A stretch of DNA of 64,000 bases from contig CAVUPH010000027.1 of NCBI GenBank assembly GCA_963743305.1, positions 16,772 to 80,771 of the forward strand, in the 5' to 3' direction. This document shows, piece by piece, positions 1,850 to 64,000 of the stretch. This DNA is from an uncultured delta proteobacterium. GTDB taxonomy: Bacteria; Desulfobacterota; RBG-13-43-22. The notes under the pieces are model-generated. The model was given only the letters and a program-made list of their open reading frames with translations. It did not search any database and was not told where the DNA came from. Each line of letters starts with the position of its first letter. The stretch's first letter is position 1. A program made the position numbers and the translations under genes.

Positions 1850-1882
1850 AGACTATCTTTTCCGTTCCCAGCATTCGTTTAA

Positions 1883-5321: not shown

Positions 5322-5326
5322 GACGT

Positions 5327-6199: not shown

Positions 6200-6202
6200 G
6201 GC

Positions 6203-46919: not shown

Positions 46920-46926
46920 GCGGGAA

Positions 46927-47394: not shown

Positions 47395-47406
47395 GATCGG
47401 TGCGTC

Positions 47407-47769
47407 ATGCCTGATGAAATGATTTCCGTCACGATGGAACAATTGATCCCGGAAACCACCCGGCTGAAAGAAAAAGGGTACCGCTTGGTGACCCTGACCT
47501 GTAGTGTGTTGCCGGAAGAGGGCTGGCGGATTATTTACACCTTTGATCGGGATTATGAAATGGTTCATTTGTCCTTAAATATTCTCCGGGGGCGGGAGGT
47601 ACCCAGCCTTTCCTCCGTATTCTGGGCCGCCTTTTTGGTGGAAAACGAGATCCAGGATTTGTTCGGCCTGCGCTTTTCGGCGCTGATCATCAACTATCAG
47701 CGCACCCTTTATTTGGAGGATCAGGCCCAGGAACCTCCTTTTGGCCGGCAGCCCGGTAAAGGCGACTGA
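47407..47769 (+). CDS. echD: Ech hydrogenase subunit D (NuoC-like)
   Basis: PSLS...AFLVENEIQDLFG. Confidence 0.88.
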   Translation: MPDEMISVTMEQLIPETTRLKEKGYRLVTLTCSVLPEEGWRIIYTFDRDYEMVHLSLNILRGREVPSLSSVFWAAFLVENEIQDLFGLRFSALIINYQRTLYLEDQAQEPPFGRQPGKGD

Positions 47770-47772
47770 TTT

Positions 47773-48849
47773 ATGCCCCAATCCATTATCCCTTTCGGCC
47801 CACAACATCCGGTTCTTCCCGAACCGATTCATCTTAAACTAACCTTCGAAGATGAGATCGTTACCGAAGTTCAGCCGGCCCTGGGGTTTGTCCATCGGGG
47901 CTTGGAAAAGATGGTGGCCATCCGGGATTTTCAGCAAATCCAACAGGTGGTGGAACGCGTTTGCGGGATCTGCTCCATGATCCATGGGATGTGTTATGCC
48001 CAGGGGATGGAAAAAATGATGGGAGTCGACGCCCCTCCCCGTTCGCGATTTCTGAGGGTGGTCTGGTCGGAGCTGCATCGCCTGCAGAGCCATCTTCTCT
48101 GGTTGGGCCTGTTTGCCGACTCCTTGGGCTTCGAAAGCCTTTTCATGGAATGTTGGAAGATCCGGGAAAAGATATTGGAGGTGAACCAGGCCACCACCGG
48201 CAACCGGGTGATTATCTCGGTAAACGTCATCGGCGGGGTCCGGAGGGACCTTAGTCCCGGACAGATTGACTGGATACTCCGTACTATCCAGGTGGTGGAA
48301 CAGGAGTTTAGGGCGGTTCAATCCGTCTTTCTCAAGGACTACACCATCCGGAAGCGGACCATTGGCCAAGGGGTCCTGACCCGCGAACAGGCCTACGCCC
48401 TGGGGGCGGTTGGACCCACGCTTAGAGGCAGCGGTGTGGCCCTGGATGCCCGGAAGCTGGGGTATGCCGCCTTTAAAGAACTGGATCTGGAGCCGGTGGT
48501 GGAAAGCGATGGGGATTGCTTTGCCCGATTGAAAGTCCGCCTCCGGGAAGTGCTGCAGTCGGTAGACCTGGTCCGACAGGCCCTTTCGCGCCTGCCCTCG
48601 GGGGAGGTACAGATCAAGGTGAAAGGGTTTCCTTCCGGAGAAGTTTTTTCTCGGGTGGAGCAGCCCCGGGGAGAATTGTTCTATTATATCAAGGCAAGCG
48701 GCCAGAAACACTTGGACCGCCTGCGTATCCGGACCCCGACCTTCGCCAACCTGCCGGCCCTGCTGACCATACTGCCGGGCGTCTATTTGTCCTCTGTCCC
48801 GGCGGTCGTTCTATCCATTGATCCCTGTATCAGTTGCACGGAAAGGTAG
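47773..48849 (+). CDS. echE: Ech [NiFe] hydrogenase large subunit E
   Basis: L1 motif ERVCGICS and L2 motif DPCISCTER at the very C-terminus, with no cleavable extension. Confidence 0.93.
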   Translation: MPQSIIPFGPQHPVLPEPIHLKLTFEDEIVTEVQPALGFVHRGLEKMVAIRDFQQIQQVVERVCGICSMIHGMCYAQGMEKMMGVDAPPRSRFLRVVWSELHRLQSHLLWLGLFADSLGFESLFMECWKIREKILEVNQATTGNRVIISVNVIGGVRRDLSPGQIDWILRTIQVVEQEFRAVQSVFLKDYTIRKRTIGQGVLTREQAYALGAVGPTLRGSGVALDARKLGYAAFKELDLEPVVESDGDCFARLKVRLREVLQSVDLVRQALSRLPSGEVQIKVKGFPSGEVFSRVEQPRGELFYYIKASGQKHLDRLRIRTPTFANLPALLTILPGVYLSSVPAVVLSIDPCISCTER

Positions 48850-48855
48850 AATTTG

Positions 48856-49239
48856 ATGTTTAAAATGACCCCCCTGCTCCTCCGAAACCTGTTAGCACCC
48901 CGGGCCACCCGCCCTTATCCCCGGGTGGTCAGACCGGCTCTGGAAGGGACCCGGGGAAGGCTCTTTAATCGGATTGAGGATTGTATCTTCTGCGCCCTGT
49001 GCGCCCTGAAATGCCCTTCTCAATGCCTAGCGGTCGATAAACTACAAGCCACCTGGCGTTATGATCCCTTTATCTGCGTCTATTGCGGGATCTGTGTTGA
49101 GGCCTGCCCGGCCCATTGCCTCTACCAGGATCCAAGCTTCCCGGAACCGGCCGAGAAAAAAGAGGTCATGCTATTAAAAGGGACGCTTAAAAAAAACCTG
49201 GCTAACCGTCCTGTTGTCCGGTTGAGGACAACGGGATGA
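48856..49239 (+). CDS. echF: Ech hydrogenase subunit F (2x[4Fe-4S])
   Basis: CIFCALCALKCP and CVYCGICVEACP. Confidence 0.9.
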   Translation: MFKMTPLLLRNLLAPRATRPYPRVVRPALEGTRGRLFNRIEDCIFCALCALKCPSQCLAVDKLQATWRYDPFICVYCGICVEACPAHCLYQDPSFPEPAEKKEVMLLKGTLKKNLANRPVVRLRTTG

Positions 49240-49262
49240 TGGGTGTAATAACGCCTTGAAAA

Positions 49263-49610
49263 CTAATCGTTTACTGCTCGGTCAAGGACTGGCAGGAGTT
49301 TGATTTTTCGTATTTCTTTTTCAGCGGGAGAATGGACAACCTGGTACAAGTCCCAGGCTAATTGCAGATTTAGCCAGAACTGCGCCTCCATACCAAACAA
49401 CTGCTCCAGCCGAAGAGCAGTGTCCGGTGTTACACCCCTTTTTCTGTGGATCAGTTCATTGACCCGGGGGTATGAGACTCCGAGCCTTTCCGCCAATTCC
49501 GCCTGAGTCATTTCTAACGGTTTAAGGAATTCCTCCAGAAGCATCTCCCCGGGATGCGTCGGCGGCCTGTTTGCAGGAATGCGAAACATCTTCTCCTCCT
49601 GTTCACTCAA
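49263..49610 (-). CDS. higA: HigA family antitoxin
   Basis: HPGEMLLEEFL, an HTH, TPDTALRL and FWLNLQ. Confidence 0.92.
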   Translation of the reverse strand: MSEQEEKMFRIPANRPPTHPGEMLLEEFLKPLEMTQAELAERLGVSYPRVNELIHRKRGVTPDTALRLEQLFGMEAQFWLNLQLAWDLYQVVHSPAEKEIRKIKLLPVLDRAVND

Positions 49611-49900
49611 TGGTAGTCCGTTATTTCAACTTGCTCCGGTCCCTCCTCAGTCCAAACAAAGCATACCCGGAACTGATCATTAATTCGTATGCTGTGCTGC
49701 CCGAGCCGGTCCTGTCTTAGTGACTCCAACCGGTTCCCCGGAGGAAGTCGAAGGGAACGCAAGGAAACCACTGCATTAAGTTGATCAAGTTTCCGTTGCG
49801 CAACAGGCCAAATGTTCTTCGGACAGGTGCGTCGAGCTTCCATCGAACCTCGTCGATCAAAGATATCCTCAGTGCCCTGGTCGAAGAACGATTTGATCAC
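49607..49900 (-). CDS. higB: HigB (RelE/ParE family) toxin
   Basis: IKSF, PPGNRLE.L, GQHSIRINDQFRVCF and DYH C-terminus. Toxin lies upstream of antitoxin. Confidence 0.92.
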   Translation of the reverse strand: MIKSFFDQGTEDIFDRRGSMEARRTCPKNIWPVAQRKLDQLNAVVSLRSLRLPPGNRLESLRQDRLGQHSIRINDQFRVCFVWTEEGPEQVEITDYH

Positions 49901-50086
49901 ACCTTGAATCCTCCGCCATCAATGACTTCATATCGATTATAATGGATAACGTTGACTATATCAATCCTTAAAGATGAAAAAGGCCTGGAGGGTATGATGC
50001 ATAGGTGTTTGGGTCGTCCGACTTACCATCGGGGACTGACCGCTCTGCATGAAGACCTTTTTCTTTATGGATCAGTCAGATTATTC

Positions 50087-50115
50087 TTGACATTATATTC
50101 CTTAATGGTTATATA
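50087..50115 (+). promoter_or_regulatory. sigma70-type promoter of the permease gene
   Basis: TTGACA-N17-TATATA. Confidence 0.55.
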
Positions 50116-50149
50116 TTGTTCTAAGATTATTTTAGGGGGGGTCGCAATT

Positions 50150-51226
50150 ATGGAAGAAAAATCAAGCTGTGCCTGTTCCATCAAAGTTGGCGAAGTTGCC
50201 AAGGAAAGCGATCTGAAGAAGAAAGGGATTTTTCTCGGTCTGGCCTTAATCGGCTGGTGGGTCATTTATCAACAGTTGCTTCCCGTTGCCCAGTGGATTA
50301 CCTATAGCCTGTTCGGGTTGGACCTGGGGACCCATTTAGCCGAAGCGACCGCCTTTTTCCTATACGATGTGCCCAAAGTATTCATGCTCCTGATTCTGAT
50401 TGTTTTTGGGGTAGGTCTGCTCCGTTCTTTTTTCACGCCGGAAAAGACCCGGGACATCCTGGCCGGCAAAAGAGAATCGGCGGGCAATGTGCTGGCCGCC
50501 CTGCTGGGCATCGCCACCCCCTTTTGCACCTGTTCCGCAATCCCCCTCTTTATCGGTTTTGTGGAGGCCGGCGTCCCTTTAGGGGTTACTTTTTCCTTCC
50601 TGATCTCAGCCCCCATGATCAACGAAATCGCCCTGGTGTTGCTCTACGGCCTTTTCGGCTGGAAAGTGGCTTTCCTTTATCTGGGAACCGGCCTGTTCAT
50701 CGCCATTGTCAGCGGCTGGATTATCGGCCGGCTTCACCTGGAGAAACAGGTGGAGGATTGGGTCTATGATATCCGCTCCGGCCTCCGGCCGTTGGTAATG
50801 GACACCCTGACCTGGTCGGGACGGATCGGCTATGCCGTCCAGGCGGTCAAGGATATCGTCGGCAAAGTGTGGATATATATCGTCGGGGGGATTGCCGTGG
50901 GGGCCGCCATCCACGGCTATGTGCCGGTGGGGTTCATGGCCTCCATTATGGGCAAGGAGGCCTGGTGGTCTGTTCCCCTGGCCGTGGTTTTAGGTGTCCC
51001 CATGTACTCCAACGCCGCCGGGATCATTCCCATTGTCCAGGCCCTGCTGGGCAAAGGGGCCGCCCTGGGTACCGTCCTGGCCTTCATGATGGCCGTCATC
51101 GGTTTGTCCCTTCCCGAGACCATCATCCTGAGAAAAGTCTTAAAGCCTCGATTGATCGCCGTCTTTATCGGCGTGGTTTCAACCGGGATCCTTCTGGTTG
51201 GATTCCTGTTTAACGCCATTATCTAA
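50150..51226 (+). CDS. ArsP/DUF318-family permease
   Basis: TPFCTCSAIPLFIGF, FLISAPMINE, GVPMYSN and SLPE. Start reassigned to MEEKSSCAC. Confidence 0.85.
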   Translation: MEEKSSCACSIKVGEVAKESDLKKKGIFLGLALIGWWVIYQQLLPVAQWITYSLFGLDLGTHLAEATAFFLYDVPKVFMLLILIVFGVGLLRSFFTPEKTRDILAGKRESAGNVLAALLGIATPFCTCSAIPLFIGFVEAGVPLGVTFSFLISAPMINEIALVLLYGLFGWKVAFLYLGTGLFIAIVSGWIIGRLHLEKQVEDWVYDIRSGLRPLVMDTLTWSGRIGYAVQAVKDIVGKVWIYIVGGIAVGAAIHGYVPVGFMASIMGKEAWWSVPLAVVLGVPMYSNAAGIIPIVQALLGKGAALGTVLAFMMAVIGLSLPETIILRKVLKPRLIAVFIGVVSTGILLVGFLFNAII

Positions 51227-51315
51227 CGGTACGGCCTCAGGACGTCGAATCCCACTCCTGGCGCTGAGGTCTGGCGACCACGGAGGTTTGATTTCAAACT
51301 AGGCGGCCTTGAATG

Positions 51316-51340
51316 GTGGCCACCCGCCCAAAAGGACGAA
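51316..51340. repeat. Solo degenerate end of the 19-bp-TIR miniature element
   Basis: GTGGCCACCCGCCCAAAAGGACGAA versus GTGGCCACCCACCCAAAAGGGCGAA at 27325-27349. Confidence 0.65.
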
Positions 51341-51403
51341 CAACCGAAATCATTTCAGCACCCGCTCCCCCTCCTTCTCCAAGACACCGGTTCCCTTGTC
51401 CCA

Positions 51404-51688
51404 TCAGGCAGCGTAATCTAATTGATTTAGGCTCTGCGAAAGCCTTTCGACATCCGCGACGGTTCTTATCCGGTCTAAATCCTGAAAAGGCTTATTCAGT
51501 TCAGAGGGATGCTTCAAAATGGTTTTGTTATGCGGTTCTGAAATAATTAAATCCAAGCCCTGCCGGTCAAGAAGCACACCCGCCTTTTCAAGCGGAACGG
51601 AGGAACGGACGAAACTCCCTTTAGAAATGATAAAGTAGGTAATTCGATAATCCGGATCGATATGCATGATTTCTATTTGTTCGTTCAT
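51404..51688 (-). CDS. Hypothetical protein (94 aa), sigma54-driven
   Basis: AAGGAGGAG RBS before the ATG at 51688 and an upstream -24/-12 site. No recognisable motif. Confidence 0.6.
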   Translation of the reverse strand: MNEQIEIMHIDPDYRITYFIISKGSFVRSSVPLEKAGVLLDRQGLDLIISEPHNKTILKHPSELNKPFQDLDRIRTVADVERLSQSLNQLDYAA

Positions 51689-51749
51689 GGTCTCCTCCTT
51701 AATCTGGTCTATAGGTTGGGGATTAGTACCACGTTGTGTCAATTAGTTA

Positions 51750-51765
51750 TGCAAGGAAAATGCCA
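51750..51765 (-). promoter_or_regulatory. sigma54 promoter
   Basis: Minus-strand TGGCATTTTCCTTGCA. Confidence 0.75.
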
Positions 51766-51993
51766 GCGATGACGGTCCTCCTATTCAACGTATTGAAAAA
51801 ATTTACGTTTTCTAATTCCTCCACGGTCTGATTCAATCTACATGCCAAGGTATCTCCTTTCAATGTGCATGGTTTATCAGCCACTATCCAGAAAACCATA
51901 TATCATCAAGTGTTTATAAAGAGGCCGCTCGCCTTTTGTGCAGGCGTCGTTTTTCTTCTTGACATATATACCACAACGTGGTATTTTAGTCAA

Positions 51994-52146
51994 TAAAATA
52001 ACGAAATTTGAATTTAATCTTGCACTACCCCGCCGTTTCGGGTCCCCTCGATCCGAAACAAAAGAATCTCCTCCCCTCTCCTCCAGGGGCCGCCTTCGAT
52101 TCCGGAGCATCCGGAGTTGGAGGCGGCCCCTCCTTCCCGCCTTTTG
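51994..52146 (+). ncRNA. Candidate small regulatory RNA
   Basis: TTGACA-N17-TATTTT promoter with TG extension (51959-51987), followed by two hairpins (52035-52059, 52085-52131) with plus-strand G-U pairs and CU-rich single-stranded parts. No convincing ORF. Confidence 0.4.
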
Positions 52147-52147
52147 C

Positions 52148-53020
52148 TTAACGGAACCCGGTTGGCCGAGACAAAGAAGATACCTTTTCTTCCTTTGGTC
52201 CAAAAGTGAATTGATACCCGAGGTAGGCGGAGAAAAGATTGGGTCCGTCAAAATCCCGGCCGGCGGAAACCAGGATATGATGATGCTCCGTTAGATTAAA
52301 AATCGCCCCCACATTGAATCCGGTGCTGCTATCCCCTCCATCCTGGCTCGGGGTTCGGTGGAAAATCTCAGCCCCCAGGGTAAACTGCTTGGTAATTTCC
52401 CGTTGCAGCAGCCAACCGAAAAACCACCAATTCTTATTGCCCTCTCCGGGATTGATCCAATACCCGCCACCGCCGTAACTGGTCCACGGGCCCCAGCTTT
52501 TTTGGAGCCAGAGAGGAAGAAAAACCTGGGTTTCTCCGCTTCCCAACCCTTTATCCTTATCGCCTGTGGGGAAGAGTATTATCGGAAAGGTCCCCACCAT
52601 GGGAATGGAATCGGTTTCCTGGATAAACCGGTATTTAATACCGAATTCGAGATCCCCAAAACCATACTGGGCGGACTCCCCTTCCGGTTTATCATATTGC
52701 AACGGGGCAATCAAATGGACATGAACATTGGGGAGGAGGCCATAATTCAGCTCGAGGAGGGGTAAGGCCCCGGAGTTTCCATCGCGGCTGTGTTGGAATT
52801 GGGAGGACAGATACACCTCCCCATGCTTATAGTCCGCGGGTTCAGGGTCATCGGTAAAGAAGGGAGGCCCCGCCCAGACAGCGGTCAGCCCCAACATCCA
52901 TTGTAATAACACTAGCGTGAGGCCGGCCGACAGGAATGTCCCGAATCGAAAGCTACCCGCGGCTGGGAACAAAAATAATTGCTGCTTTCTTGTAGGGGGG
53001 GTTCGAATTCTCCGTTTCAT
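52148..53020 (-). CDS. Putative outer-membrane beta-barrel (MetA-pathway phenol degradation-like transporter family)
   Basis: Signal peptide, GPPFFTDDP, GFGDLEFGIKYRF, PTGDKDKGLGSG and alternating beta strands. Confidence 0.7.
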   Translation of the reverse strand: MKRRIRTPPTRKQQLFLFPAAGSFRFGTFLSAGLTLVLLQWMLGLTAVWAGPPFFTDDPEPADYKHGEVYLSSQFQHSRDGNSGALPLLELNYGLLPNVHVHLIAPLQYDKPEGESAQYGFGDLEFGIKYRFIQETDSIPMVGTFPIILFPTGDKDKGLGSGETQVFLPLWLQKSWGPWTSYGGGGYWINPGEGNKNWWFFGWLLQREITKQFTLGAEIFHRTPSQDGGDSSTGFNVGAIFNLTEHHHILVSAGRDFDGPNLFSAYLGYQFTFGPKEEKVSSLSRPTGFR

Positions 53021-53077
53021 TGGTAAACCTCCTTACCAGGGATTTGATAGTACCGGACCGGACCCATTATCCGGGAT

Positions 53078-53398
53078 TTAGCCGACGATAAGATAGAATC
53101 CGGCGACAATAAGACCACTGACTACAAAGGCTCCCACGATTATACTAGTCAGCTTATCGGGAGCTACCGTTATGCCCTGACCGTTATTCGCCTTGGCTAA
53201 GGCGAACCCCAAAACGACGAAGAGGATCAGGTCAAGAAGGGTATGGGTAATCCAGTGGTGCGGAGAGACGGCCTTCATCCAGGCCAGAACCGGTTCGCTG
53301 ACTTCTTTTAAAACGACCAGCAGCGCGCTGAACAGGCTGGTGATGGCGAAGGATAAGCCAAAAGACTTTCCATACTTGCCAATTTCGATATTTCCCAT
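53078..53398 (-). CDS. Small membrane protein (3 TM)
   Basis: 106 aa, hydrophobic segments, HHWITH motif and GAGGTG RBS. Confidence 0.7.
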   Translation of the reverse strand: MGNIEIGKYGKSFGLSFAITSLFSALLVVLKEVSEPVLAWMKAVSPHHWITHTLLDLILFVVLGFALAKANNGQGITVAPDKLTSIIVGAFVVSGLIVAGFYLIVG

Positions 53399-53407
53399 GT
53401 TTTCACC

Positions 53408-53500
53408 TCAACCCTTCTTTCTATTTAGGGAGTAAAGCAACCCGGACACCCATACTGATAATGGCGCCGGCGCCCTCCATGGCCACGGTGGTCAATATGG
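53408..53500 (-). pseudogene. 3' fragment of a membrane protein cut at the compositional junction
   Basis: LSILTTVAMEGAGAIISMVSGLLYSLNRKKG* ends at the RBS of the next gene and has no plausible N-terminus. Confidence 0.4.
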
Positions 53501-53563
53501 ACAGACTCGAAGAATCGGGTCGGCCTGTGACACAGGGCTCGCTACCCCCCACCAGGCGAACCT

Positions 53564-56014
53564 TCAGTCTGAAGTCTTATTCCTCCGAGCTACGTTGAAT
53601 TCGTTTTCTGAGAATAGGTTGGTGTCCGTCACGCAGAAGGCAATTTTCGAGCTTCTTTTGGTGGCACCCGCGGGCTCGAACCTGATGGTCACATCGTCTG
53701 CGAGCGGTACGAACTCAAACGTTGTCGGACGCTCGGCCTGAAGCGTCGCGCTCAGAATCAACTGCCCTCCAGATCGAATATCGATACGAGCATCCTTCGT
53801 CGGCCAGCCAGCGAGCCTAAGGGGCTGCCGCGATTTGGTCGCTTCTGAGACGAAGCGCGATTGCGCTTTCAAATGGCCGTTCGCCATGAAGCCAACGACA
53901 GGGCTGGCGTTCGCAGGTTGGGTCAATGAGGGCGCCGCTACGCCCCCCGCCGGCATTTCCTGCTGGTCCTTCCGTCTTGAAAACCAAAGCCCGAAGGGTT
54001 TCATCCGTTTCGACAGGGTCGACAGCTTCTTGTTGGCCTTTTTACGCATCACTTTGCCGAGGGCCGCGATCGGTGATTGCTGGGCCTGGCCGAAGCGATA
54101 AGAGTAAAAATCGACGAGATTTCTTTCCAACGTCGGCAAGACGACGGCGGCGCCCCTGAATAGCCAATTTCCCTCGCTGTGCAATGTCTCGTGCACGAAT
54201 CCTCGGATCCAACTTTCATCGACATGCCCACCATGGCGCAGGCATACCTTGAAAATCTCCCGGTAAATTTGCGAGCGCGAAGAAAGAGTCTTCGTCTCCG
54301 GATAGAGCCGGGAATTGGCAAGCTTGACTGGGACATGCAGGATCGGGACACCTGCCATGGCCATACGCAGCCAGTAATCATAGTCCATGACGTACTGCAG
54401 ACTCTCGTCGAAGGGGCCAATCTTGCGAGCAGCGTACGCGCTCCAGAACGCGGCGGGTTGACAGATAAAGCAGTTTTCCAAGAGGCGTCTGGATGAAAAT
54501 TGCTCGGTGGGATACGCGCCGGTGATCTTGTCCTCGACGTCGATGTAGTCGGCGTCTCCGTAGATCATCACGTCCGGCTGGGCCCGAAAACGTTTGACCA
54601 CCGTCTCCACCGCATCCGGGGTCAGGGTATCATCAGAGTTGAGATAGGAGAGAATCTGGCCTGTACTTTGCGCGAGGCCCTTATTGATGGCATGCGCTTG
54701 GCCCCGATCAGGTTCAGACACCCAATTGAGTTTGTCGCCGTAGGAGCGCAGGACTTCCAGCGTGCTATCTGTCGAGCCTCCGTCGACGACCCGATATTCG
54801 ATATTAGGGTATGTCTGGCTAAAGACGCTTTCAATCGTGCGGGCAATGAAGCGACCCTGATTGAACGAGGGCGTGACGATAGATACGAGTGGTGGCGGTT
54901 CAGTCGTCTCAACTAGGACATTTCTTTCCTGCACGCGCTCGAAAGCCTCGCGCAGAATCGATGCCGATTTTTCCCACGAATAGAATTGAAGGCGCTCAGT
55001 TCCCTTTGCGATCAGCGATACGCGCAGCGCCTTGTCGTCGGCGATGGCGGCCATGGCGCGAGCAAGCTCTTCAGCACTATGTGGGTCCACGAGGATCGCG
55101 GCGTCGTCCGCCAACTCGGGGAGGCTCGCCGCATTGCTGCTAATGACGGGACAGCCAAACCCAAAAGCCTCCAACACCGGCATCCCGAACCCTTCAAACA
55201 GAGACGGGAACACAAGCGCGGTCGCATTCCGAAACAGCAGCGCCACCTCGTTATCGGGCACGAAGCCCATGTGGACCACGTTCGTGCTGTCAGAGCTCGC
55301 CTTTAGCCTAGGCCATCCGCTGGGGTCACCGGAGAGGACAAGAGTGAAGTCCTCGTGCGCCTTCGCACTGCTGCGAAATAGCGCAAACGCCTTCAGCAAC
55401 ATTTCGTGATTCTTGTGTGGCCACAGTTTTGCAGGATAATAAAAGTAAGGAATAGGAAGTTTTATCGCAGAGATTTTGTCCCCATAAACCGGAGACAACT
55501 CTGTTGCGAATTGGTTAGCGCCCGGTAGAGTGAAGATATCGTCATACCTATTCCTATATTCTCGACAGATTATAGTCCGCGAATGCTCTGATAAGGTTGC
55601 AACGGCCCCGCAGCCCTCGATTAAACGGCGAAAATCCTCACGACGCCGGACGAGTTCGGCTGAAGTGAAAAAGGCAGGATATTCTTCGTGCTGTAAATCC
55701 GGAACGAAACAAATCTGCCTGTCTAGCCGGAATCTCAAGGGATCGCTGACGGGAAACGCTCGAAACAGGACGTCAATCTGCTCGCTGCACAACAACGCCT
55801 CAAGACGAGACCAGTATGAATCAAGTGGTATGGAGAAGCGGCGTACATTCTTACCTTGTTCCGGAAATATCTTCCTATTGAATATCGTGCCGAAGAAATA
55901 GTACTCATGATTGGATGCTTCCCCACAAAGCGTACTAAACAGACTATTCAGAAAGGGCGCGATCCCTCCCGAATACTGACTGACAATAAAACGTATCTCT
56001 ACGCCGATTCGCAG
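53564..56014 (-). CDS. Fused GT4 + GT2 glycosyltransferase
   Basis: GT4 motifs YPAKLWPHKNH and FPSLFEGFGMP. GT2 motifs VSIVTPSFNQ, VDGGSTD and YLNSDD. The frame is open upstream to CTG 56014 (LRIGVEIRFIVSQYSGGI). Confidence 0.85.
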   Translation of the reverse strand: MRIGVEIRFIVSQYSGGIAPFLNSLFSTLCGEASNHEYYFFGTIFNRKIFPEQGKNVRRFSIPLDSYWSRLEALLCSEQIDVLFRAFPVSDPLRFRLDRQICFVPDLQHEEYPAFFTSAELVRRREDFRRLIEGCGAVATLSEHSRTIICREYRNRYDDIFTLPGANQFATELSPVYGDKISAIKLPIPYFYYPAKLWPHKNHEMLLKAFALFRSSAKAHEDFTLVLSGDPSGWPRLKASSDSTNVVHMGFVPDNEVALLFRNATALVFPSLFEGFGMPVLEAFGFGCPVISSNAASLPELADDAAILVDPHSAEELARAMAAIADDKALRVSLIAKGTERLQFYSWEKSASILREAFERVQERNVLVETTEPPPLVSIVTPSFNQGRFIARTIESVFSQTYPNIEYRVVDGGSTDSTLEVLRSYGDKLNWVSEPDRGQAHAINKGLAQSTGQILSYLNSDDTLTPDAVETVVKRFRAQPDVMIYGDADYIDVEDKITGAYPTEQFSSRRLLENCFICQPAAFWSAYAARKIGPFDESLQYVMDYDYWLRMAMAGVPILHVPVKLANSRLYPETKTLSSRSQIYREIFKVCLRHGGHVDESWIRGFVHETLHSEGNWLFRGAAVVLPTLERNLVDFYSYRFGQAQQSPIAALGKVMRKKANKKLSTLSKRMKPFGLWFSRRKDQQEMPAGGVAAPSLTQPANASPVVGFMANGHLKAQSRFVSEATKSRQPLRLAGWPTKDARIDIRSGGQLILSATLQAERPTTFEFVPLADDVTIRFEPAGATKRSSKIAFCVTDTNLFSENEFNVARRNKTSD

Positions 56015-56362
56015 GAGTCACCTGTGCTCTATACCTGTCACGTTCGCCCGGAGATCGACCGTCGGTTGCGCATGCGCAAGGCGGGCCAGGCCGCCGTCGG
56101 CAGGTGTCGCAGCTATGCATGCCATTCCACGCGAGGTAGAAAGGCTAAATGAATCCCCTCTGAGGTGCAACGCGGAGAAGCCCCGCCGGGCGCGCAAATG
56201 CGCTAATCCGAAGAGCCGCCAAGGTGGTAGATATCTCCATAGGCAGCCTTTGCCTTAAGGCGAACTCACGGTGAAAGAAATCGCTGTGCGGACGACCCCA
56301 GGCTGTCTTGGAGGGACGGCGGCCATTGTGCTAGGGTTACTAAGGGTAAGCAGGGGACAATC

Positions 56363-56533
56363 ATGGGAAGGACCAAAGAGATTGATTTCGCAAAGCTTAT
56401 TGGCTTTGCGGCGGTCAGCGATCACCTTTCCGACGGGATCGATTTTCAGGACGAGACCATTGGCGACAAGCTCGGCGCCAAAGTGGGGCCCGAGCCAGGT
56501 GACTCGTTCGAAGCCGCCGCCAAGCCGGACTGA
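56363..56533 (+). CDS. Putative RiPP precursor peptide (56 aa)
   Basis: Manual translation MGRTKEIDFAKLIGFAAVSDHLSDGIDFQDETIGDKLGAKVGPEPGDSFEAAAKPD*, with an AGGGG RBS, directly upstream of the HExxH gene. Not in the ORF track. Confidence 0.7.
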   Translation: MGRTKEIDFAKLIGFAAVSDHLSDGIDFQDETIGDKLGAKVGPEPGDSFEAAAKPD

Positions 56534-56658
56534 TCTCAGGGTTTTTCGGAACCGAGGAGAAGGCGGGCGAGCGCGCGAGCGTACGGGAGCCGCTTGATTT
56601 TCCCCAGGCGTTCGGCCGAATACATTGTGGATATGCCGACGAGTCTTGTCAGTCATGC

Positions 56659-57711
56659 GTGGAGGTCGAATTGACATCCCTCCTGTATCAATCCGAGCCC
56701 GTTGCGGTCGAGGCTCCGAGTTGGGACCTCGCGCCCTCGCTGCGTCGAGTCGCCGCGATCGATGCGGCGCTCCGGCTTCGGCTGGCCAGCTCGTTGGACT
56801 ACCTGGCGGACGTTGCTTCCTTAGACGGAAGTGATGACGCCTTGCTGGCGAGCATCGAAGCAAGCCTCAAGGCGGCGCCGGTCTCTCCGTGGGTCTTCTG
56901 CCTTTATTCCAAGCTGGTAGCCGAGCTTTCCAAGACCTCCGGAGGGAATGTCGCCGGGCTCGTCCAAGACATCGCGCGCGCCGCATCGCTTTCCGCCTAT
57001 CAAGGCGTAGTCGCTTTCCGCGATCCGGCCGTTCCGGTCTATTGGTGGGATCAATTTCAGCTCCTCTTCGACACCGATCGTCAGCGTCCCTTCAAACCAA
57101 AGGCTGCGAGTGGCGAAGCCTTCGCCTTATGCAACGAGGACGTGGAGGCCGGCCTCGCCCTTCTAAAGCGCGGCGACCCGATCTGGCACGACGAGGTTCT
57201 GCGCCTGGTCAAGATGATCGTGCTTGGGGCACCCGGAGGTGCCGAGCGCGCCGATCGGTTCAACGGCGCCTCGACGTTTTTCGTTTGGGGGGCGGCGCTG
57301 CTCAATGGCGACCTCAGACGAAGCCCCATTGCGATCGTGGACTTACTCGTGCACGAGAGCAGCCACATCCTGCTGTTCGGCGTGTCGGCTGAGAGCGCTC
57401 TGACGACGAACAGCGGTCATGAGCGATACGACTCGCCCGTGCGCCCAGACAAGCGGCCGATCGACGGCATCTTCCACGCCTGTTTCGTGTCGACGCGGGT
57501 TCACCTCGCGCTGGACCGATTGCTTGAAAGCGGTGCGTTGAACGCCGAGGAGACTGAGAGTGCGGTCGACCACCGGCGATATAATGGGTCCTCGGCCCGT
57601 GTCTCGCTCGACATGCTCGAGCGTCACGCTAAGCCAACCGCACTCGGCGAGAAGATTCTCGGCACGCTTCGCGCGTATTGGGCCGGTGTCCATCCGACTG
57701 ATGCGTGGTAA
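56659..57711 (+). CDS. HExxH-motif peptide-modifying enzyme (aKG-HExxH family)
   Basis: FNGASTFFVWGA, LLVHESSH, YDSPVRPDKRPIDGIFHACFV and PTALG. Confidence 0.85.
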   Translation: MEVELTSLLYQSEPVAVEAPSWDLAPSLRRVAAIDAALRLRLASSLDYLADVASLDGSDDALLASIEASLKAAPVSPWVFCLYSKLVAELSKTSGGNVAGLVQDIARAASLSAYQGVVAFRDPAVPVYWWDQFQLLFDTDRQRPFKPKAASGEAFALCNEDVEAGLALLKRGDPIWHDEVLRLVKMIVLGAPGGAERADRFNGASTFFVWGAALLNGDLRRSPIAIVDLLVHESSHILLFGVSAESALTTNSGHERYDSPVRPDKRPIDGIFHACFVSTRVHLALDRLLESGALNAEETESAVDHRRYNGSSARVSLDMLERHAKPTALGEKILGTLRAYWAGVHPTDAW

Positions 57712-57968
57712 TGCAGCAAATTCGCGAGATGTTGCTGGCCGCTCTCTGCGCCGCGCGGTATGGGAGGCCCCCCGTGCCGGTGATTGCTCAAGCCGTTGTC
57801 GCTGGAGACCGTGGGCTGACGCTGGACCAGCTTGAGTTCGACAGCTTGGCTTGGATGGAATTCTGTATCTCAGTCGAGCTCCAATCGGGACAGGAGTTGA
57901 CGCCAGCACACATTGATCGCATGCGATACTTCTTCGAGATCGAGCAGTGGCTTCACGAGCGAGTCTGA
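57711..57968 (+). CDS. Acyl carrier protein-like protein
   Basis: 85 aa with LDQLEFDSLAWMEFCISVE (DSL phosphopantetheine site). Start overlaps the HExxH stop (TAATG). Confidence 0.65.
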   Translation: MQQIREMLLAALCAARYGRPPVPVIAQAVVAGDRGLTLDQLEFDSLAWMEFCISVELQSGQELTPAHIDRMRYFFEIEQWLHERV

Positions 57969-57970
57969 GG

Positions 57971-58855
57971 ATGCTCCACTATCTGCAACAACTGTTTCGC
58001 GCCCCAACCCCGGTGGAGTTCATTCGCTACCACCTCGAGCATGATAAGAGCATCGACTATCTTAAACTCGCTTCACGCTGCGAAACCGTGAACATGTTCA
58101 ATCGCCTGCACATTGATCTCGAAAATATCTGCTCCCCACTCGAGGTCGCAGGGATAAAAAAGCTCGGAAAATCAAAAATTCCCGAACCTGCCCGCGAGTG
58201 GCTGAGGCACCTCAGACATTGGGAGCCCAGCCTGTTCGACGCCCCGCAGCGCTTTGAGCGTCGCGCAATTTCCTGGCCGGTGATGCTGTACCAGGATCCC
58301 GAGCATGACGTGCACGATAAGAGCCTGCTTGTGGCTTTCGCGGACGATGCTCGGCGCCTGATGATACCAATATCGGTGTTCCTGCAATACGTGGACTGCC
58401 GCTTGTGGGACGTCGTTATTTTGAAAAGAGGCCTACATTCGCACTTGCACGGATTGGACGGGATGTCGACCGACTTTCATGGCCTCGTCGAATACCTCGA
58501 AGCCGCGGTGTCTCCGACGCAGTACCGGCGCCTGATAACGTTGGGCACCAGCGGGGGCGGCTTTCCTGCCATATGGGCCGCCATGCTCATGCGTGCTTCC
58601 CGTGGCATTTCCATTTGCGGCTGCCCACCGAGATCCCTTCCGCCATCATTGGAGGGTCGACGCGCGCCCCATGGCGTTGACCTTTGTTACGTTTATGGCG
58701 GCGCTCACGACCAAGACCGTCGGTCAGCGCTTTCTTTGTTGGCCCTCTTCGGCGGCCGGCTGCACCCGGTTCCTAACGTTGATGAACACGCATTCCTTTA
58801 TCGCATAGTGGTAGACCGTCACTTTGGTGAATTTCTCAACTCGATGCTTGCCTAA
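57971..58855 (+). CDS. Alpha/beta-hydrolase fold protein
   Basis: LGTSGGG nucleophile elbow with candidate Asp (DQD) and His (DEHAF). Confidence 0.65.
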   Translation: MLHYLQQLFRAPTPVEFIRYHLEHDKSIDYLKLASRCETVNMFNRLHIDLENICSPLEVAGIKKLGKSKIPEPAREWLRHLRHWEPSLFDAPQRFERRAISWPVMLYQDPEHDVHDKSLLVAFADDARRLMIPISVFLQYVDCRLWDVVILKRGLHSHLHGLDGMSTDFHGLVEYLEAAVSPTQYRRLITLGTSGGGFPAIWAAMLMRASRGISICGCPPRSLPPSLEGRRAPHGVDLCYVYGGAHDQDRRSALSLLALFGGRLHPVPNVDEHAFLYRIVVDRHFGEFLNSMLA

Positions 58856-58928
58856 TAGTATCTCTGATCAGAAGGCTCGCAGCCCGCATGCAACGCTTCT
58901 CACCCTACGCCGCCTTACAGGAGCAATG

Positions 58929-61900
58929 TCAGGCTGAGGCGACTTGGTCGAGCCCGAGCGTGCTGCAAAGCCGCTCCGCATAAGTGCGGAAATTGTGCTC
59001 TGCATAGTAGGCGCTCCTTGCTTCGGGAGAGCGATGCTCGCCGACCTGTTGTTCGAGGAGCCTGGCGAGAGCCTCCGCAATCAGCGCTGGGTCCAGCCGA
59101 TCCGGAACGCGCGCCACATAGACTGGCGCTTCAATAGAGATCGGCGAGGTCGTCGTTAGCGACCGTCGGCAAGCCGGCGGCTATGCAATCGATCAGCGCG
59201 CCCGAAACCGAGCCGAAACCGAACGTGCGCAGCTGAATGCCGAGATCGGCGGCTTGGAGATAGGCCTGGTACACGGTCTCGGGGACGAAGTCCCGCTCAG
59301 TCGCGCCCACAAAGCGAATACGATCCACAAGGCCGGCGTCCGCGCAAATCGACCTGAGGTTCGTCATGTCTCCGGTGGGGCAGCCGACAAAATGCAAGCT
59401 CGCTTGGATGCCCCGTCGCGCAGCAGCTTCAACGCTTCGATGCATGCCTCCGGTCCCTTGGTCGCGTGGACCAACCCAAACGTGGCGATGACGATTTCAT
59501 CGGCGGCGATACCGAGCTTGTCGCGGGCCTTGGAGCGCGCCGAGGGCGTCAACGCCTCCGGCTCCCACGGGCGATAAATGGCGAAGGGTAAATAGACGGG
59601 ATCGATGCCGTAGCGCTCTCGCACGATGCGAGTCGCCCCCTTGGAGTGCAGGAACAAGGGGTCGCAGGCAGCGGCCAGTTCGCCGAGAAAAAGCGTCTCC
59701 AGGCGGTTCTCATCGGAGAGCCAGCTGTCGATTTCTTGCCGTGACACCGGCCGGCCAAGCTCGCGCCCGGCCTGTTGCAGGGCCCGCTCCATGCCGAGGC
59801 TGCGACAGTAGAGATTCGCCAGCCGGCTGTCGTGCAAGATGCAGGCGCCCCCAGACCCGACGAGGTTCTCGAAGATGCGGACATGGAACCGGGAATTGCC
59901 CATGATGCCGATGACGCGGTCGAAGCCCAAAGCGGCCGATCGCAAATTGGCCAACGGATTGATGGAGGCGGCACCTGGGATGAGGTGGGGGCGATCGGTG
60001 CCGGTGAAGACGTGAATTTCCGCCCGGCGGCTCAGTTCCGGCAGCGACGCTGCGGTGAAGTGTGCGACGCCGGAACGGTCCGGCGGTATCGGGCTCAAGA
60101 CGGCGATCTTGGGTCTCCGCTGTCCAATGATCGCGGGTCGCGATACCTGCGCGCGTGCCGCTTTTCCTAAGCTGTTCAACCACGGGAGCCGGCGACGCAG
60201 CTTTGCGAGGCCAGCCGCGAGACGCGGCGCTCGCGGGACTTTGTGCTGCTCGGAATTGTGGGACAAGACCAGATCACTCACGCGCCGGCCTTTGACCATG
60301 TTGTGGTGAGCGAGCGCCTTGCGCTCGTCGAGACGATCGACGATGCGACAGCGATCATTTCATGTCTCGGTTGGCGCAGCAATATGGGCGCCCGAAGCAG
60401 ACAAAGCCTCACCCCAATCTCCGCTTTGCGGCGCTCGCACGCTGGCCGCGGATGCATATGCCCGTCAGCAGGACGCCGACGTCCCTCGCATCAGCTTCGC
60501 TCTGGCGCGCGATGTAAGTAGAGAGAATGCGGAGCAGCACCGAGTTTGAGGGCGATGGAAGCATCACGCAGCCATCGGCCTTGTAGCGCATACCGGGCGT
60601 GATCACCTCGGAAAAGATGACCTGATCGTCAGCCGCGATCTCGACACGCTGCGCTCGATCCGGCGTGGCGATCGCGGTGAAATTCCACGGTCAGCGTGAA
60701 GCTGTCTACGGGGCGGTCGACATAGAAGCGGATATGGCTTTCTGGCGCGGAGGTCCAAACACCAGCCTTTTCTGCGGGATGGAGATTGCGCTGGTGGAAC
60801 GGCTGGAGAAAGTTCTGCGAAGGGACATGCCTCTTCCCTTCGACGATGGCATAAGGTCTCGTTGGGGACGTGCGGAGCAGCGCTTCGAGGTCATTCGGCG
60901 TCACGGAGAAAGGCGCGAGAAGCGGTTGCGAATTCCACGCTTCCGATGCTCCTTCATCGACAAGGCTTGTGGGCAAGATCGAGTAGCGGCGCTCGACCTC
61001 CGACGCGAGCGCCAAGGGAAGCAGATCGAAGTCGATCTTCTGCCGCACGGCAGCCTCCCATAATGTGCCGCTCAATGCGCTGCTCCGTGCCAGCCATCCG
61101 CGCCCAATATGTGGGGAATTGACCGCGCTTTGGGTGGTATCCCAGTCGCGGACGAGTGTCACGCGGCGAAATTCGGGAATCGAACGACCGAGCGGCCCCA
61201 CGAAGTTCGGGTGCTGGACTGGGGTTCGTGAGCTTGTGATCAAGCCGCTCAGGAAGAGGCCTGCATCAGCATGTTGCTCGGCGAGGGTGACCAGGCTTGC
61301 GAAATGATCGGGTGCCAAGCGCTCGGCCGCGCTGAACGATGTGAAATAGGGCGCTCGCAGGGCCCTAAGACCAGCCTCGAGCGGTGTCGCGCCGTTTTCA
61401 ACGGGCACAAATTCGACCGCAATCGACCCGCCAACCCCCGATGCCGAGCTTTTCGCGCAGAGGCTCCGACAGCTCGCATCCGATCGCAAGCACGCGCAGG
61501 GCGATGCCTTCGCGCTTGGGGAGAGCGTGGAGCGCGCGGGCCGCTTCCTCCGGCGCGAGGCCGTCTACCGGGAAGAGAATATCGATCTCGGCTGAGTCTG
61601 GGTGAGCAGCCGTCGTAGGAAGCGATGCGGCGAAGTCGCATGTCTGCTCGATCGTTCGCTCGAGAGAGAACCGCCAAGCCGTTGCTGGCTTGCCTCCGCC
61701 ATGGCTGCCGCCTCGCTTGGGTTTGCCCGCGCCCAGGCGACGAACTCGGCGATCTTGCCTGCGACAGTCGTTGTGTCGTCGCGGAGATCCACGTACAGGG
61801 CAGACGATCAAGCATCTCGCGCGCGTAGGGCGTTTCGTCGGCAATGATCAAGCAACCTGCGCTGCCCGCCTCGAACAGGCGAGCGGAGGGCAGATCTGCC

Positions 61901-62566
61901 GCGCGATGCTCGGCCTTGTTAAGGCAAAGCGCTATGCCGTGGCGGGCAAGCGCGGCGTAAAGGGTCTGTCCATCGTAGGCAATCGGGCCGCGATAAGAAC
62001 GCGGCATGCTTCCAGCTTCCGGCAGGTCCGTAGAGATTAATGCCGCAGAGTTTTTCAAGTTCATCGAGGAGGCTCTGATGCCTGCGTCCGTCCCAGTGGA
62101 TGCCGATATAGACGAGCTCCCAGATGCTCCTTGCGTGATCGACCGGCACCATGCGGGCCGGGGAACTTGGAAGAAAGCGAAAGGCAGATTTCGGCTTTGC
62201 AGCGCCCGAGATGGCTTCGAGCTCCTTGAGAAACATCGCGACCTGCGGAGAGCCGACAAGATAGGCGTCATGACTTAGAATCGATTGAAGCCTGAACTTG
62301 TCCGTTTCGAAGAAAACCGGTGGGCTCCAGAGCGCGAGGATGGTTGGGTAGAATGTGAGCTTCTGAGCGAATTCGTGGGTGGCTATCACGAAGTCCGGAT
62401 CGGCTGCTTCGATTTCGTCCGAGGTCACCGCCACGAAGACCTCGTGCCCAAGGGATTCGGCAACGCGCCTGAAGCGGGAAATGAATTCCGCCTCTGCAGA
62501 ATGCTCGCGATTGGGCAGCGCATTGATCAGTGCAATGCGCCGGCGCTGTTTTGACTGAGCCGCCAT
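58929..62566 (-). CDS. Large multidomain glycosyltransferase (CgeB-like + GT2-like + GT4), broken by multiple frameshifts
   Basis: Consecutive fragments in alternating frames: LVYIGIHWDGRR, LPSARLFEAGSAG, KIAVLSPIPPDRSGVAHF, FGLVHATKG, IQLRTFGFGSVSGALIDCIAAGLPTVAN and HNFRTYAERL. It could be more than one gene. Confidence 0.65.
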
Positions 62567-62693
62567 TTGGCTTTCCCGAGATGAGGCATAGCGCGGGCCA
62601 GTCAGTCTGACCACGCCCAATATCGTGTCCCCTTATAAGGGACAATGGCGCTAGCAAAATCTGGAGAACTGCCGGCTGCGTGCCGCCGTGGCT

Positions 62694-63573
62694 CTAAAGA
62701 TAAAGCCGCTCAGGATTGATGCCGGGTAGGCGGAGAGCGAGCGGCAGGAGCGGCCGAAGCGCCCGGCGCGTCAATCGCCGGGAAAGGCTCGTATGCGGCT
62801 CACGTGCCCTTCTGGCAACCAAGTTGGCGAGGTAGCTTGCGCTAATATCGGCGAATCTGGCCGGGGCTGTAGGCCAGAAAGGCCGTGCAAGTCGAAATAG
62901 CTCGGCTGGACGCCGCGATTGTGCATCCCTCGGCGAGGATGGCACGCGTCTCAGCAGGAGTGTGCTCTCGAGCTTCGTGAGACTAGCCACGTCTTGAAGG
63001 CGAAGCATGAACTCCAGATCGTATGTGTATTGGTAGCTTTCATCGAGACCGCGGAGAGGATCGAGCAAACCGCGACGGAAGAACAACGGGGGTTGCGGTA
63101 GCATTGAGCTATTGGTCCAGAAGCGAGCGATCTGCGCTGGATCCGGTGGTCGGCCATAGTGCCAATTGGTCTTCAATTCTCCTTGCGCAGCCGGTCGGCG
63201 CCGATCGGCATCGAAGTAAAAAACGTTGCCCAGGACGGCATCGATATCGAGATGATCGCGGAACGTGCGACCAACTTTGTCCAGGGCGCCGTCAGCAAGG
63301 ATATCGCCCGCGGTTAGCCAGACCAAAACTTCGCCCCGCGCACGAGCGAGTCCTGCGTTGATGAGATGCGCTGGCCCTTCGTCGAATCGAAATTCCTGCT
63401 GCTTGAGGGTTCGCTCAACTGACTGGTTGCCATCGAGGTTCTCCACCGCCGGAGTCTTTATCCATGACCAGAAGCTCGACGTCCGGGTAGGCCTGAGTTT
63501 TCACGCTGTCGACGGTCTGCGCGAAGACCTCCGCTTCGCCGTATGAAGCAACCACTACGGTGACGCCAGGCAT
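62694..63573 (-). CDS. GT2 glycosyltransferase, frameshifted near 63450
   Basis: VTVVVASY...VELLVMD, then AHLINAGLARARGEVLVWLTAGD and LDESYQYTYDLEF in another frame. May be fused to the upstream GT2. Confidence 0.65.
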
Positions 63574-64000
63574 TCGTTGTTCTTGCTTGCGGCATGGTGC
63601 GAGGAGGGGCCGGGGAAAAGGCAGGTAGCCAACGTCGCCGTCCTCCATGGAGCACGGGAAGCCACTTGCATCCCCCGCGACCGAACGGAGCTCCGCGTGG
63701 ACGTGTTGCAGCAAAAGTGCGAAATGCTTCTGCACCTGGCTGGAAGTGCTCGCTGGCTGGATCTTTGCGCAACGCGTCGAGCAGATAGAGAAAAGTGCCG
63801 ACCCTTGTAACAGGTTGTCCCGTGTGGCGACGGCCGATCTCGCAAAGCTCAACGCACCGCTTCAAACCGCCGGCCGCGGTCTTGGTTGTCTGATATTCGC
63901 GGCTCAGCGACAGGAATTCATTGATGAGGACGACAGGGTAGGTGCGAGCAACGCGGATGATGAAGTCCCAATCAAGCCCGAATTGCAGCGTCGGATCGAG
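63574..64000 (-). CDS. C-terminal part of a GT2 glycosyltransferase, truncated by window edge
   Basis: The frame from 64000 reads LDPTLQFGLDWDFIIRV...REYQTTKT, like the DYDYWLR...YPETKT segment of the GT2 at 54300. Confidence 0.6.

Follow-up and report, generated by a model that had tools for sequence, protein, structure and literature searches.

What would be made by a small operon in which a short peptide is paired with a stand-alone HExxH protein, and is that product still within reach of the genome that carries the operon? The question is raised by a stretch of 64,000 nucleotides (hereafter the window, meaning this stretch at its full length) from contig CAVUPH010000027.1 of an uncultured delta proteobacterium (assembly GCA_963743305.1, Desulfobacterota lineage RBG-13-43-22), which contains a cassette of four genes for a 56-amino-acid (aa) peptide, an HExxH protein, a carrier protein and an alpha/beta-hydrolase. 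An earlier note on this DNA had suggested a new system of ribosomally synthesised, post-translationally modified peptides (RiPPs), where hydroxylation of the peptide would be followed by carrier-dependent acylation and/or glycosylation by flanking glycosyltransferases, and had seen in the product a class that it did not recognise. The last description is too strong: the cassette represents a real and uncharacterised RiPP-type family, every part of which has a known counterpart. We put at roughly 0.55 the probability that it is a RiPP-type operon in which the peptide docks on the HExxH enzyme and is oxidised at its LGAK(V/I)G segment, accompanied by an acylation module resembling NosI/J/K, the adenylase of which is missing here.

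The four genes

The four open reading frames (ORFs) of the cassette are co-oriented on the plus strand and either overlap or are closely spaced (positions are those of the window):

56352-56357, plus strand: Shine-Dalgarno sequence AGGGGA, 5 nt ahead of the peptide ATG, read from the sequence
56363-56533, plus strand: putative precursor peptide, 56 aa (ORF list and family alignment)
56659-57711, plus strand: stand-alone alpha-ketoglutarate (aKG)-HExxH protein, 350 aa (TIGR04267 match)
57705-57968, plus strand: carrier protein, 85-87 aa, from a GTG start at 57705 or an ATG start at 57711
57947-58855, plus strand: alpha/beta-hydrolase-fold serine enzyme (c2), 302 aa, with a GTSGG motif (motif and fold model)
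58856-59130: gap of 275 bp where relatives encode an AMP-binding adenylase (c1), followed by convergent glycosyltransferase fragments

The ORF list agrees with the earlier note on the positions and the strand of the four genes, and on their orientation opposite to the glycosyltransferases on both sides (a 743-aa protein on one side, fragments from 59131 on the other). The HExxH gene is likewise without a radical SAM gene in its vicinity, as had been observed; over 41 kb separate the cassette from the nearest of the 57 radical SAM matches in the genome. The ATG of the carrier gene overlaps the HExxH stop codon by one base (TAATG), and the hydrolase ORF starts 22 nt within the 3' end of the carrier gene. 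Because of these overlapping starts and stops, the HExxH, carrier and hydrolase genes are read as translationally coupled. Neither an RNA structure (z = +1.2) nor a plus-strand terminator was found between the peptide and HExxH genes. Pfam gave no match in any of the four ORFs, and NCBIfam gave none for the peptide or the hydrolase.

A conserved pair of peptide and enzyme

The window peptide, which occurs in a single copy in this genome, carries LxGF at residues 12-15, DF at residues 27-28, LGAKVG at residues 37-42 and then an acidic tail that begins with PEP. In the family alignment L-x-G-F, D-F and L-G-A-K-(V/I)-G are invariant or nearly so, and the tails past the last Gly are variable in both length and sequence. 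The loci compared were 20 from species genomes, 77 from metagenomes and the window, i.e., 98, which reduce to 75 distinct ones. When the window peptide was used in tblastn, 11 of the 20 genome loci gave matches, often more than one, on the upstream side of the HExxH gene. A hidden Markov model (HMM) of the peptide was built from these matches and applied to the 50 distinct loci in which 600 bp or more of sequence is available upstream. Of these loci, 42 have a peptide unit in the 1.5 kb upstream of the HExxH gene, on its own strand, and 45 have one no more than 4 kb away on one strand or the other. Altogether, 106 of the 127 HMM matches fall into the 1.5-kb same-strand zone, which makes up 6.9% of the searched strand-bases; this placement is well beyond chance, and the refuting condition set in the earlier note, a peptide not conserved beside HExxH homologs, does not hold. 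Among the most distant HExxH homologs (28-35% identity) the pairing is kept in 17 of 19 loci, and the carrier protein is seen in just 3 of the 27 testable loci of that class. What the family conserves as its core is the peptide-HExxH pair.

The peptide family itself is real and uncurated. A profile of 14 peptides, run against a collection of 1.84 billion proteins, retrieved 320 representative clusters with a threshold of E<=1e-3 and 235 with one of E<=1e-10, and many of the 320 contain two to four matched units. Precursor units are often arranged in tandem or fused, in ORFs of two to eight units: one ORF at locus L009 has six units of about 47 aa each, and L015 has eight. The units are joined by short linkers, often rich in Glu and Pro, and some units of multi-unit proteins (P0170, P0232) keep only the DF...LGAKxG half and are without LxGF. 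In having near-identical units within one ORF, beside single-unit genes, these precursors resemble multi-core RiPP precursors of the cyanobactin and borosin type. In contrast to those repeats, the whole unit is conserved across phyla here, and there is no hypervariable core.

On the side of the enzyme, at least 206 homologs were found in a large protein collection; the 120 matches listed share 52-83% identity with the window protein (its own copy aside), and those among them that bear a name from their source are called 'HEXXH motif-containing' or hypothetical. The HExxH family is rare in species genomes, with 20 loci among 185,579. One of the related loci has a second, divergent HExxH paralog, which is encoded on the opposite strand upstream of the peptides (L008:4003-4968, minus strand).

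The HExxH enzyme and its predicted docking

The 350-aa protein matches TIGR04267 (mod_HExxH) over residues 162-335 with 93.8 bits against a cut-off of 40, and with 95.5 bits in the genome-wide search; the model (IPR026337) stands for the 'aKG-HExxH-type peptide beta-hydroxylase'. The copy in the public collection is 346 aa long, and translation may start four codons downstream of 56659. Among 25 HExxH sequences, H232, E233, H236, R262, D264, R266 and H273 are invariant, as are R41, L42 and V87. The HExxH profile matches the structures of ChlH (8s5f) and 22nu at low identity (E = 1e-3 to 1e-4) with the motifs aligned: the HExxH motif of the window protein falls on HEHRH of ChlH, and its Arg and His residues fall on the R.D.RP..G..HA segment. 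The HExxH motif, the third His and the two Arg residues presumably serve as ligands.

The family HMM, the HExxH motif, the third His and the two Arg residues are common to the window enzyme and ChlH/ChlBH, BpmH, PflC/PosC and PesO, and the known aKG-HExxH systems also have a small precursor encoded beside the enzyme, as in the window. Unlike them, the window enzyme stands alone, being neither fused to nor paired with a radical SAM, MNIO, nitroreductase or GNAT protein. The papers found on aKG-HExxH systems are without this precursor family (LxGF...DF...LGAKVG) and its carrier, hydrolase and adenylase partners. Likewise, a literature search that had subscription journals and supplements beyond its reach found no paper in which HExxH enzymes are connected to carrier proteins.

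Enzymes of the aKG-HExxH type are a recently recognised RiPP family, the reactions of which are not yet predictable, according to the accessible part of one paper (PMC13060819); the residues reported as hydroxylated in the accessible parts of two papers are His, Asp, Phe, Gln and Pro (PMC12636437, PMC13060819). In the part of PMC12636437 that is available, PflC and PosC are described as requiring their substrate's N-terminal portion as a leader and as cutting the backbone oxidatively, with Ala or Gly, as small residues, in the motif that they recognise favouring alpha-hydroxylation and cleavage, which leaves a C-terminal amide. This need for a leader matches the LxGF docking that is predicted for the window peptide. 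By analogy only, the invariant core of the present family may be set beside the motif of PflC/PosC: it is rich in small residues (G-A-K-V-G), it precedes a variable tail or another unit, and no protease is encoded nearby. The PflC/PosC motif is a different one (ARMD).

As the earlier note had suggested, the complex of peptide and enzyme was modelled, from an alignment of the HExxH proteins and one of the peptides, in three runs and with three controls. The interaction prediction score from aligned errors (ipSAE) was 0.84 (0.85, 0.84 and 0.83 in the runs) against 0.01 for the best control. The mark that it passes is reached by 58 of 80 solved complexes and by 2 of 110 mismatched pairs, a calibration that is only roughly valid because the alignments were user-supplied. 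The partner has a predicted local distance difference test (pLDDT) score of at least 61, and at least 79% of the contacts are common to the runs. In the model, peptide residues 5-18, including LxGF, lie on enzyme helices 38-53 and 84-93, within which the invariant R41, L42 and V87 are found. Also part of the modelled interface are residues 34-45 of the peptide (LGAKVG plus the first tail residues) and, in the enzyme, residues 200-208, H236, R262 and H273, i.e., the HExxH site. It is from this placement that LxGF is read as a putative recognition element and LGAKVG as a putative modification site. A sizeable uncurated precursor family, with a docking motif and a candidate modification site, is thereby defined for one clade of stand-alone HExxH enzymes.

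Carrier protein, hydrolase and the missing adenylase

The earlier identification of a DSL carrier protein was borne out. D46-S47-L48 is invariant in the family, and the family profile matches solved acyl carrier proteins (ACPs; E = 2e-4) with S47 aligned with the ACP serine; no Pfam PP-binding match was obtained at E<=0.1. The AlphaFold2 model has a pLDDT of 95.7, S47 opens the helix 47-61, and the Foldseek matches listed are all ACPs or peptidyl carrier proteins, with template modelling scores of 0.5-0.7. By its model, then, the 87-aa protein has a carrier-protein fold with the DSL serine in the correct place. The GTSGG protein could equally be upheld as a Ser-Asp-His alpha/beta-hydrolase: G200, S202, G204, D257 and H281 are invariant in 17 sequences, G200-x-S202-x-G204-G205 forms the elbow, and the fold is that of the AlphaFold2 model (pLDDT 87.8; Foldseek matches with E down to 7e-8). 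Its core, at about residues 100-302, matches carboxylesterases, feruloyl esterases and acyl-protein thioesterases (Z 13.8-15.2). The N-terminal part of about 100 aa is helical and family-specific, and few fold matches cover it. The hydrolase family is small, with 48 matches, of which the source-named ones are all called hypothetical.

In relatives the order of this module is carrier, hydrolase and then an AMP-binding adenylase of about 486 aa, which has an AMP-binding domain (PF00501, 4e-32) and AMP-binding_C. The adenylase gene directly follows 16 of 18 related hydrolase genes, each with at least 600 bp of downstream sequence; at L014 it is found elsewhere in the locus, and the window's hydrolase gene is the sole one of the 18 without it. 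An HMM of the adenylase gave no match in the window at 45000-64000. The window cassette is an incomplete copy. A call of the subfamily or the substrate of the relatives' adenylase was tried and dropped: no NCBIfam subfamily model passes its cut-off, and the nearest solved structures are only generic aryl- and acyl-CoA ligases.

Of the loci in which each could be tested, 27 of 61 have the carrier, 16 of 46 have the hydrolase and 16 of 37 have the adenylase. The linkage of carrier and hydrolase with the HExxH gene, as first described, therefore needs to be divided: the two genes do travel together, but the carrier/hydrolase/adenylase trio is an accessory module, which segregates from HExxH at the family level. 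L017 has two hydrolase-adenylase pairs (1050-3375 and 5219-7547) and peptides on both sides, and at L016, L038/L040 and L050 the adenylase follows HExxH directly without a carrier or a hydrolase. The absence of the adenylase, the multi-unit precursors and the probably foreign origin of the cassette are points that the earlier note had missed.

A proposed pathway by analogy

The reading that we favour takes the 56-aa ORF as the precursor, the N-terminal LxGF segment of which would bind the helical N-terminal domain of the HExxH enzyme. Such docking would put LGAK(V/I)G at the iron site of an Fe/alpha-ketoglutarate oxygenase, and a residue in this segment would be oxidised. Hydroxylation is the most likely outcome; PflC-like oxidative cleavage of the backbone at a small residue is a possible one, by analogy. 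In relatives, the adenylase would then charge the phosphopantetheine of the carrier with a carboxylic acid, as in NosI/J/K, and the hydrolase-fold enzyme would use its serine to hand the acyl group on to the peptide once this is oxidised. In the window's genome the carrier would either be loaded in trans, or the acylation branch would be dead and only the oxidation would be left. The genes present, their families as judged by fold and motif, the co-occurrence of peptide and enzyme and the lack of an adenylase are results of computation; docking of the peptide on the enzyme is predicted by a model, and we infer the chemistry, the donor of the acyl group and the residue that accepts it. The chemistry on offer would be oxidation followed by carrier-dependent acylation or cyclisation.

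The precedent comes from thiopeptides. In the available text of PMC5585349, NosI of the nosiheptide pathway adenylates an acid, NosJ carries it and NosK, a protein of the alpha/beta-hydrolase fold, releases or transfers it; LclJ/LclI/LclK of lactocillin, an unrelated set, follow the same logic, and transfer from NosK to the peptide was not seen in vitro. Both trios place an adenylating enzyme, a small cryptic carrier and an alpha/beta-hydrolase in a RiPP cluster, as do the relatives of the window cassette, in one operon. The likeness to NosI/J/K is one of gene roles, and it is the closest precedent for an adenylase, a carrier and an alpha/beta-hydrolase acting on a ribosomal peptide; of this set, the window has the carrier and its alpha/beta-hydrolase partner in a RiPP operon. 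The differences are that an HExxH oxygenase replaces the thiopeptide machinery, that no gene here makes an acid to be loaded, and that the window copy is without an adenylase. With this precedent, carrier-dependent acylation, as one half of the modification originally proposed, is reasonable. The other half, glycosylation by the flanking glycosyltransferases, found no support: of the 20 genome loci, just one has a good match to the 743-aa glycosyltransferase (E 4e-12) close to the cassette. Glycosyltransferases as conserved partners were accordingly rejected, since L010, which has that match, and L019, with a weak one (E 0.004), are the only cases among these loci.

Several observations weigh against the favoured pathway. 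The conserved cassette contains no gene for a protease, an exporter or the building of an acyl group. The carrier protein reaches no curated carrier-protein cut-off; on NF009104 it scores 14.1 bits against 70. The genome has no adenylase ortholog: none of its 30 AMP-binding matches exceeds 31% identity, and the one with the highest score is 29% identical (103 bits). A strict relay of the NosIJK type does not account for the loci at which the adenylase occurs without a carrier or a hydrolase (L016, L038/L040 and L050). The ipSAE of the modelled complex expresses the confidence of the model rather than a measurement. The acidity of the peptide tail tracks the trio, which simple acyl delivery does not predict and activation of a peptide carboxylate would. 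Finally, the 57 radical SAM matches, together with a hydrogenase cluster and a sigma-54 activator in the window, may point to an anaerobic or microaerophilic host, and an anaerobic host, if so, may leave an O2-dependent HExxH enzyme little used.

A possible remnant of a transferred cluster

The alternative that survives best, which we nonetheless regard as doubtful, is that the cassette is what is left, in a decaying or silent state, of a gene cluster gained by transfer; it would yield at most a hydroxylated peptide, and its carrier and hydrolase genes would have no role. This would fit the window's hydrolase gene being the only one of 18 with no adenylase in its locus, with no ortholog elsewhere in the genome, and the frameshifts in the adjoining glycosyltransferase genes. 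It would also fit what is known of the origin of the cassette. GC content is 0.61 over 56001-64000, compared with 0.49-0.58 in the other fourteen 4-kb bins of the window, and this GC-rich 8 kb holds the cassette and reaches the contig end. The HExxH protein belongs to a well-supported clade of eight trio-type sequences, in which the named members are from alphaproteobacterial metagenome-assembled genomes (MAGs) and the rest are metagenome contigs, and no homolog was found in 60 relatives, or at E<=1e-10 in 400 other genomes of the phylum, although the family is rare everywhere. The cassette was probably acquired by horizontal transfer, as judged from these sequence features; a mis-joined contig is a possible alternative to transfer.

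Against decay stand the four intact ORFs, in which every invariant residue is kept, and the preserved overlapping and coupled starts. The missing adenylase could, moreover, sit in the unassembled part of the genome, which is only 90% complete; none of the 30 AMP-binding matches in the genome is on the contig of the cassette. Metagenome contigs point the same way. Those from Logan that match within 54500-60500 range in length from 150 to 1056 bp, and no single one bridges that region; at 90-99% identity and low depth, their indels are confined to non-coding positions (56015-56352 and 56561), with none in the four ORFs, which is a weak sign of selection at this depth. Matching ends just upstream of 56277 in contigs from two runs and after 58925 in one run, at the outer edges of the cassette. 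These single, low-depth contigs hint that a related population has the same cassette in another context, there too with no adenylase beside it. Because it is probably foreign and without an adenylase, the window copy is of lower value, and complete relatives, e.g., the cassettes of L034, L009 and L006, are better suited than it is for further work.

Possible activation of a peptide carboxylate

In the main rival scheme for the chemistry, itself unlikely, the adenylase of relatives activates a carboxylate of the peptide itself, probably that of the Glu past GAK(V/I)G, to give a peptide-thioester on the carrier. The hydrolase would then act as a cyclase, like a nonribosomal peptide synthetase (NRPS) thioesterase, onto Lys40 or the new hydroxyl, or would release the peptide, and the route would be blocked in the window, where the adenylase is absent. 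The argument rests largely on the tails. An acidic residue, mostly Glu, is found within three positions past GAK(V/I)G in 73 of 78 units, at 27 of 27 loci, when the trio is present, and in only 3 of 25 units, at 2 of 16 loci, when it is not; Lys is usual there in the latter. On the HExxH tree the trio label switches three times, two of these on well-supported branches, and the tail follows each time, so that the link holds at all two or three independent changes. Two or three concordant contrasts are, however, not significant (sign test, p = 0.5). Loci with the adenylase and without the carrier and hydrolase would fit direct formation of an amide, and the hydrolase core is thioesterase-like in its matches to acyl-protein thioesterases 1 and 2 (Z 14.2-14.4). 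On the other hand, the nearest solved relatives of the adenylase are aryl- and acyl-CoA ligases, and no ribosomal peptide is known to us to be charged onto a free-standing carrier protein. The acylation and carboxylate-activation readings are not separable by computation.

A further element in favour of carboxylate activation would be a second activation route. The candidate is c3, a conserved protein of about 330 aa and of unknown family, which is encoded beside HExxH in all 16 distinct trio-less loci that have at least 1300 bp of downstream sequence. It occurs in only 1 of 27 trio loci (L015), a count that may be low since some trio loci are on short contigs. The c3-bearing loci and an example are as follows:

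L011, L013, L019, L020, L022, L046, L071, L074, L075, L092, L097 and others: loci bearing c3
L020:2742-3782, minus strand: example of c3

Longer members of c3 have N-terminal TPR repeats, which were all that Pfam matched in 13 members, and no PDB-profile or NCBIfam match was found. A language-model search of the ESM Atlas places c3 near clusters labelled ATP-grasp or RimK (0.95-0.99), but hhalign of c3 against two RimK-type proteins of this genome gave a probability of 0.2-0.3. An ATP-grasp identity, unsupported by Pfam, PDB profile and hhalign, remains a lead, and the argument that c3 supplies a second activation route is weakened to the same extent.

If these elements are taken together, an undescribed RiPP class might be envisaged, which we hold to be improbable as a whole. 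In it, the carboxylate of the oxidised peptide would be activated by either of two interchangeable ligase modules and the peptide then cyclised or cross-linked; the trio would go with acidic tails and c3, possibly ATP-grasp-like, with basic ones. This would amount to NRPS-style thiotemplated ring closure on a ribosomal peptide. A core that does not vary between phyla, the large number of precursor copies and the absence of exporter and protease genes would then suggest a cofactor- or metallophore-like product, not an antibiotic. Independently of its chemistry, the existence of two near-exclusive accessory modules that track a switch in tail charge provides a testable handle on new peptide chemistry.

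Peptidase and thiotemplate alternatives

There is little to recommend, in our estimate, the idea that the hydrolase is a peptidase that trims the tail or cuts units apart after an xE(P) linker, with the carrier and the adenylase serving some other end. No other protease is encoded in the cassette, multi-unit precursors with their E-P-rich linkers would need to be cut, and a prolyl tripeptidyl aminopeptidase is among the re-aligned fold matches (Z 14.0), as are two S9-family peptidases in the Foldseek list. The best fold matches are nevertheless esterases and thioesterases. In addition, the hydrolase gene is never found without an adjoining carrier and adenylase, save in the window, where the carrier is kept, and single-unit precursors with tails of 1-5 residues also accompany the trio module.

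Systems for beta-hydroxylation of carrier-bound aminoacyl groups combine a hydroxylase and a thioesterase with an adenylation enzyme and its carrier, a logic that the set of the relatives (adenylase, carrier, oxygenase and alpha/beta-hydrolase) fits. It is nonetheless highly improbable that the cassette is such a stand-alone NRPS-type tailoring system, in which HExxH hydroxylates an amino acid or other small acid tethered to the carrier, for release by the hydrolase, and does not have the peptide as its substrate, given that the peptide-HExxH pair persists in 17 of 19 loci of the distant class, where the carrier is found in 3 of 27, that the enzyme-peptide complex model passes its controls, and that the characterised aKG-HExxH enzymes named in the accessible parts of PMC12636437 and PMC13060819 all act on peptides.

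Neighbouring genes

The cassette is bordered by glycosyltransferase genes on the minus strand, and further ORFs on this strand follow towards the end of the window:

53564-55795, minus strand: GT4+GT2 fusion glycosyltransferase, 743 aa, divergent flank (Pfam)
59131-60299, minus strand: GT4-like gene split by a frameshift into ORFs of 311 and 104 aa, convergent flank (ORF list, weak Pfam matches)
61249-62271, minus strand: weak match to Glyco_trans_1_2, under the cut-off
62694-63446, minus strand: weak match to Glycos_transf_2, under the cut-off
60629-61489, 61919-62620 and 63415-63852, minus strand: overlapping ORFs without a noted match

The 743-aa protein matches Glycos_transf_1 (2.6e-27) and Glycos_transf_2 (5e-27) in Pfam, and its C-terminal part of about 230 aa is without a match. 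The 311-aa and 104-aa ORFs overlap at 59364-59445; the shorter one has Glyco_trans_1_4 and Glycos_transf_1 matches under the Pfam cut-offs, and the longer one has no Pfam match. Contigs of two soil-metagenome runs have an extra C after 59410, within this overlap, and a third run agrees with the window. The extra C would rejoin the two frames, which points to a strain polymorphism or an assembly error as the origin of the split. The overlapping minus-strand ORFs at 60629-64000, with their weak glycosyltransferase matches, look like more frameshifted genes. The window also contains a NiFe-hydrogenase/complex-I-like cluster at 44158-48849 and a sigma-54 activator at 41148-42068.

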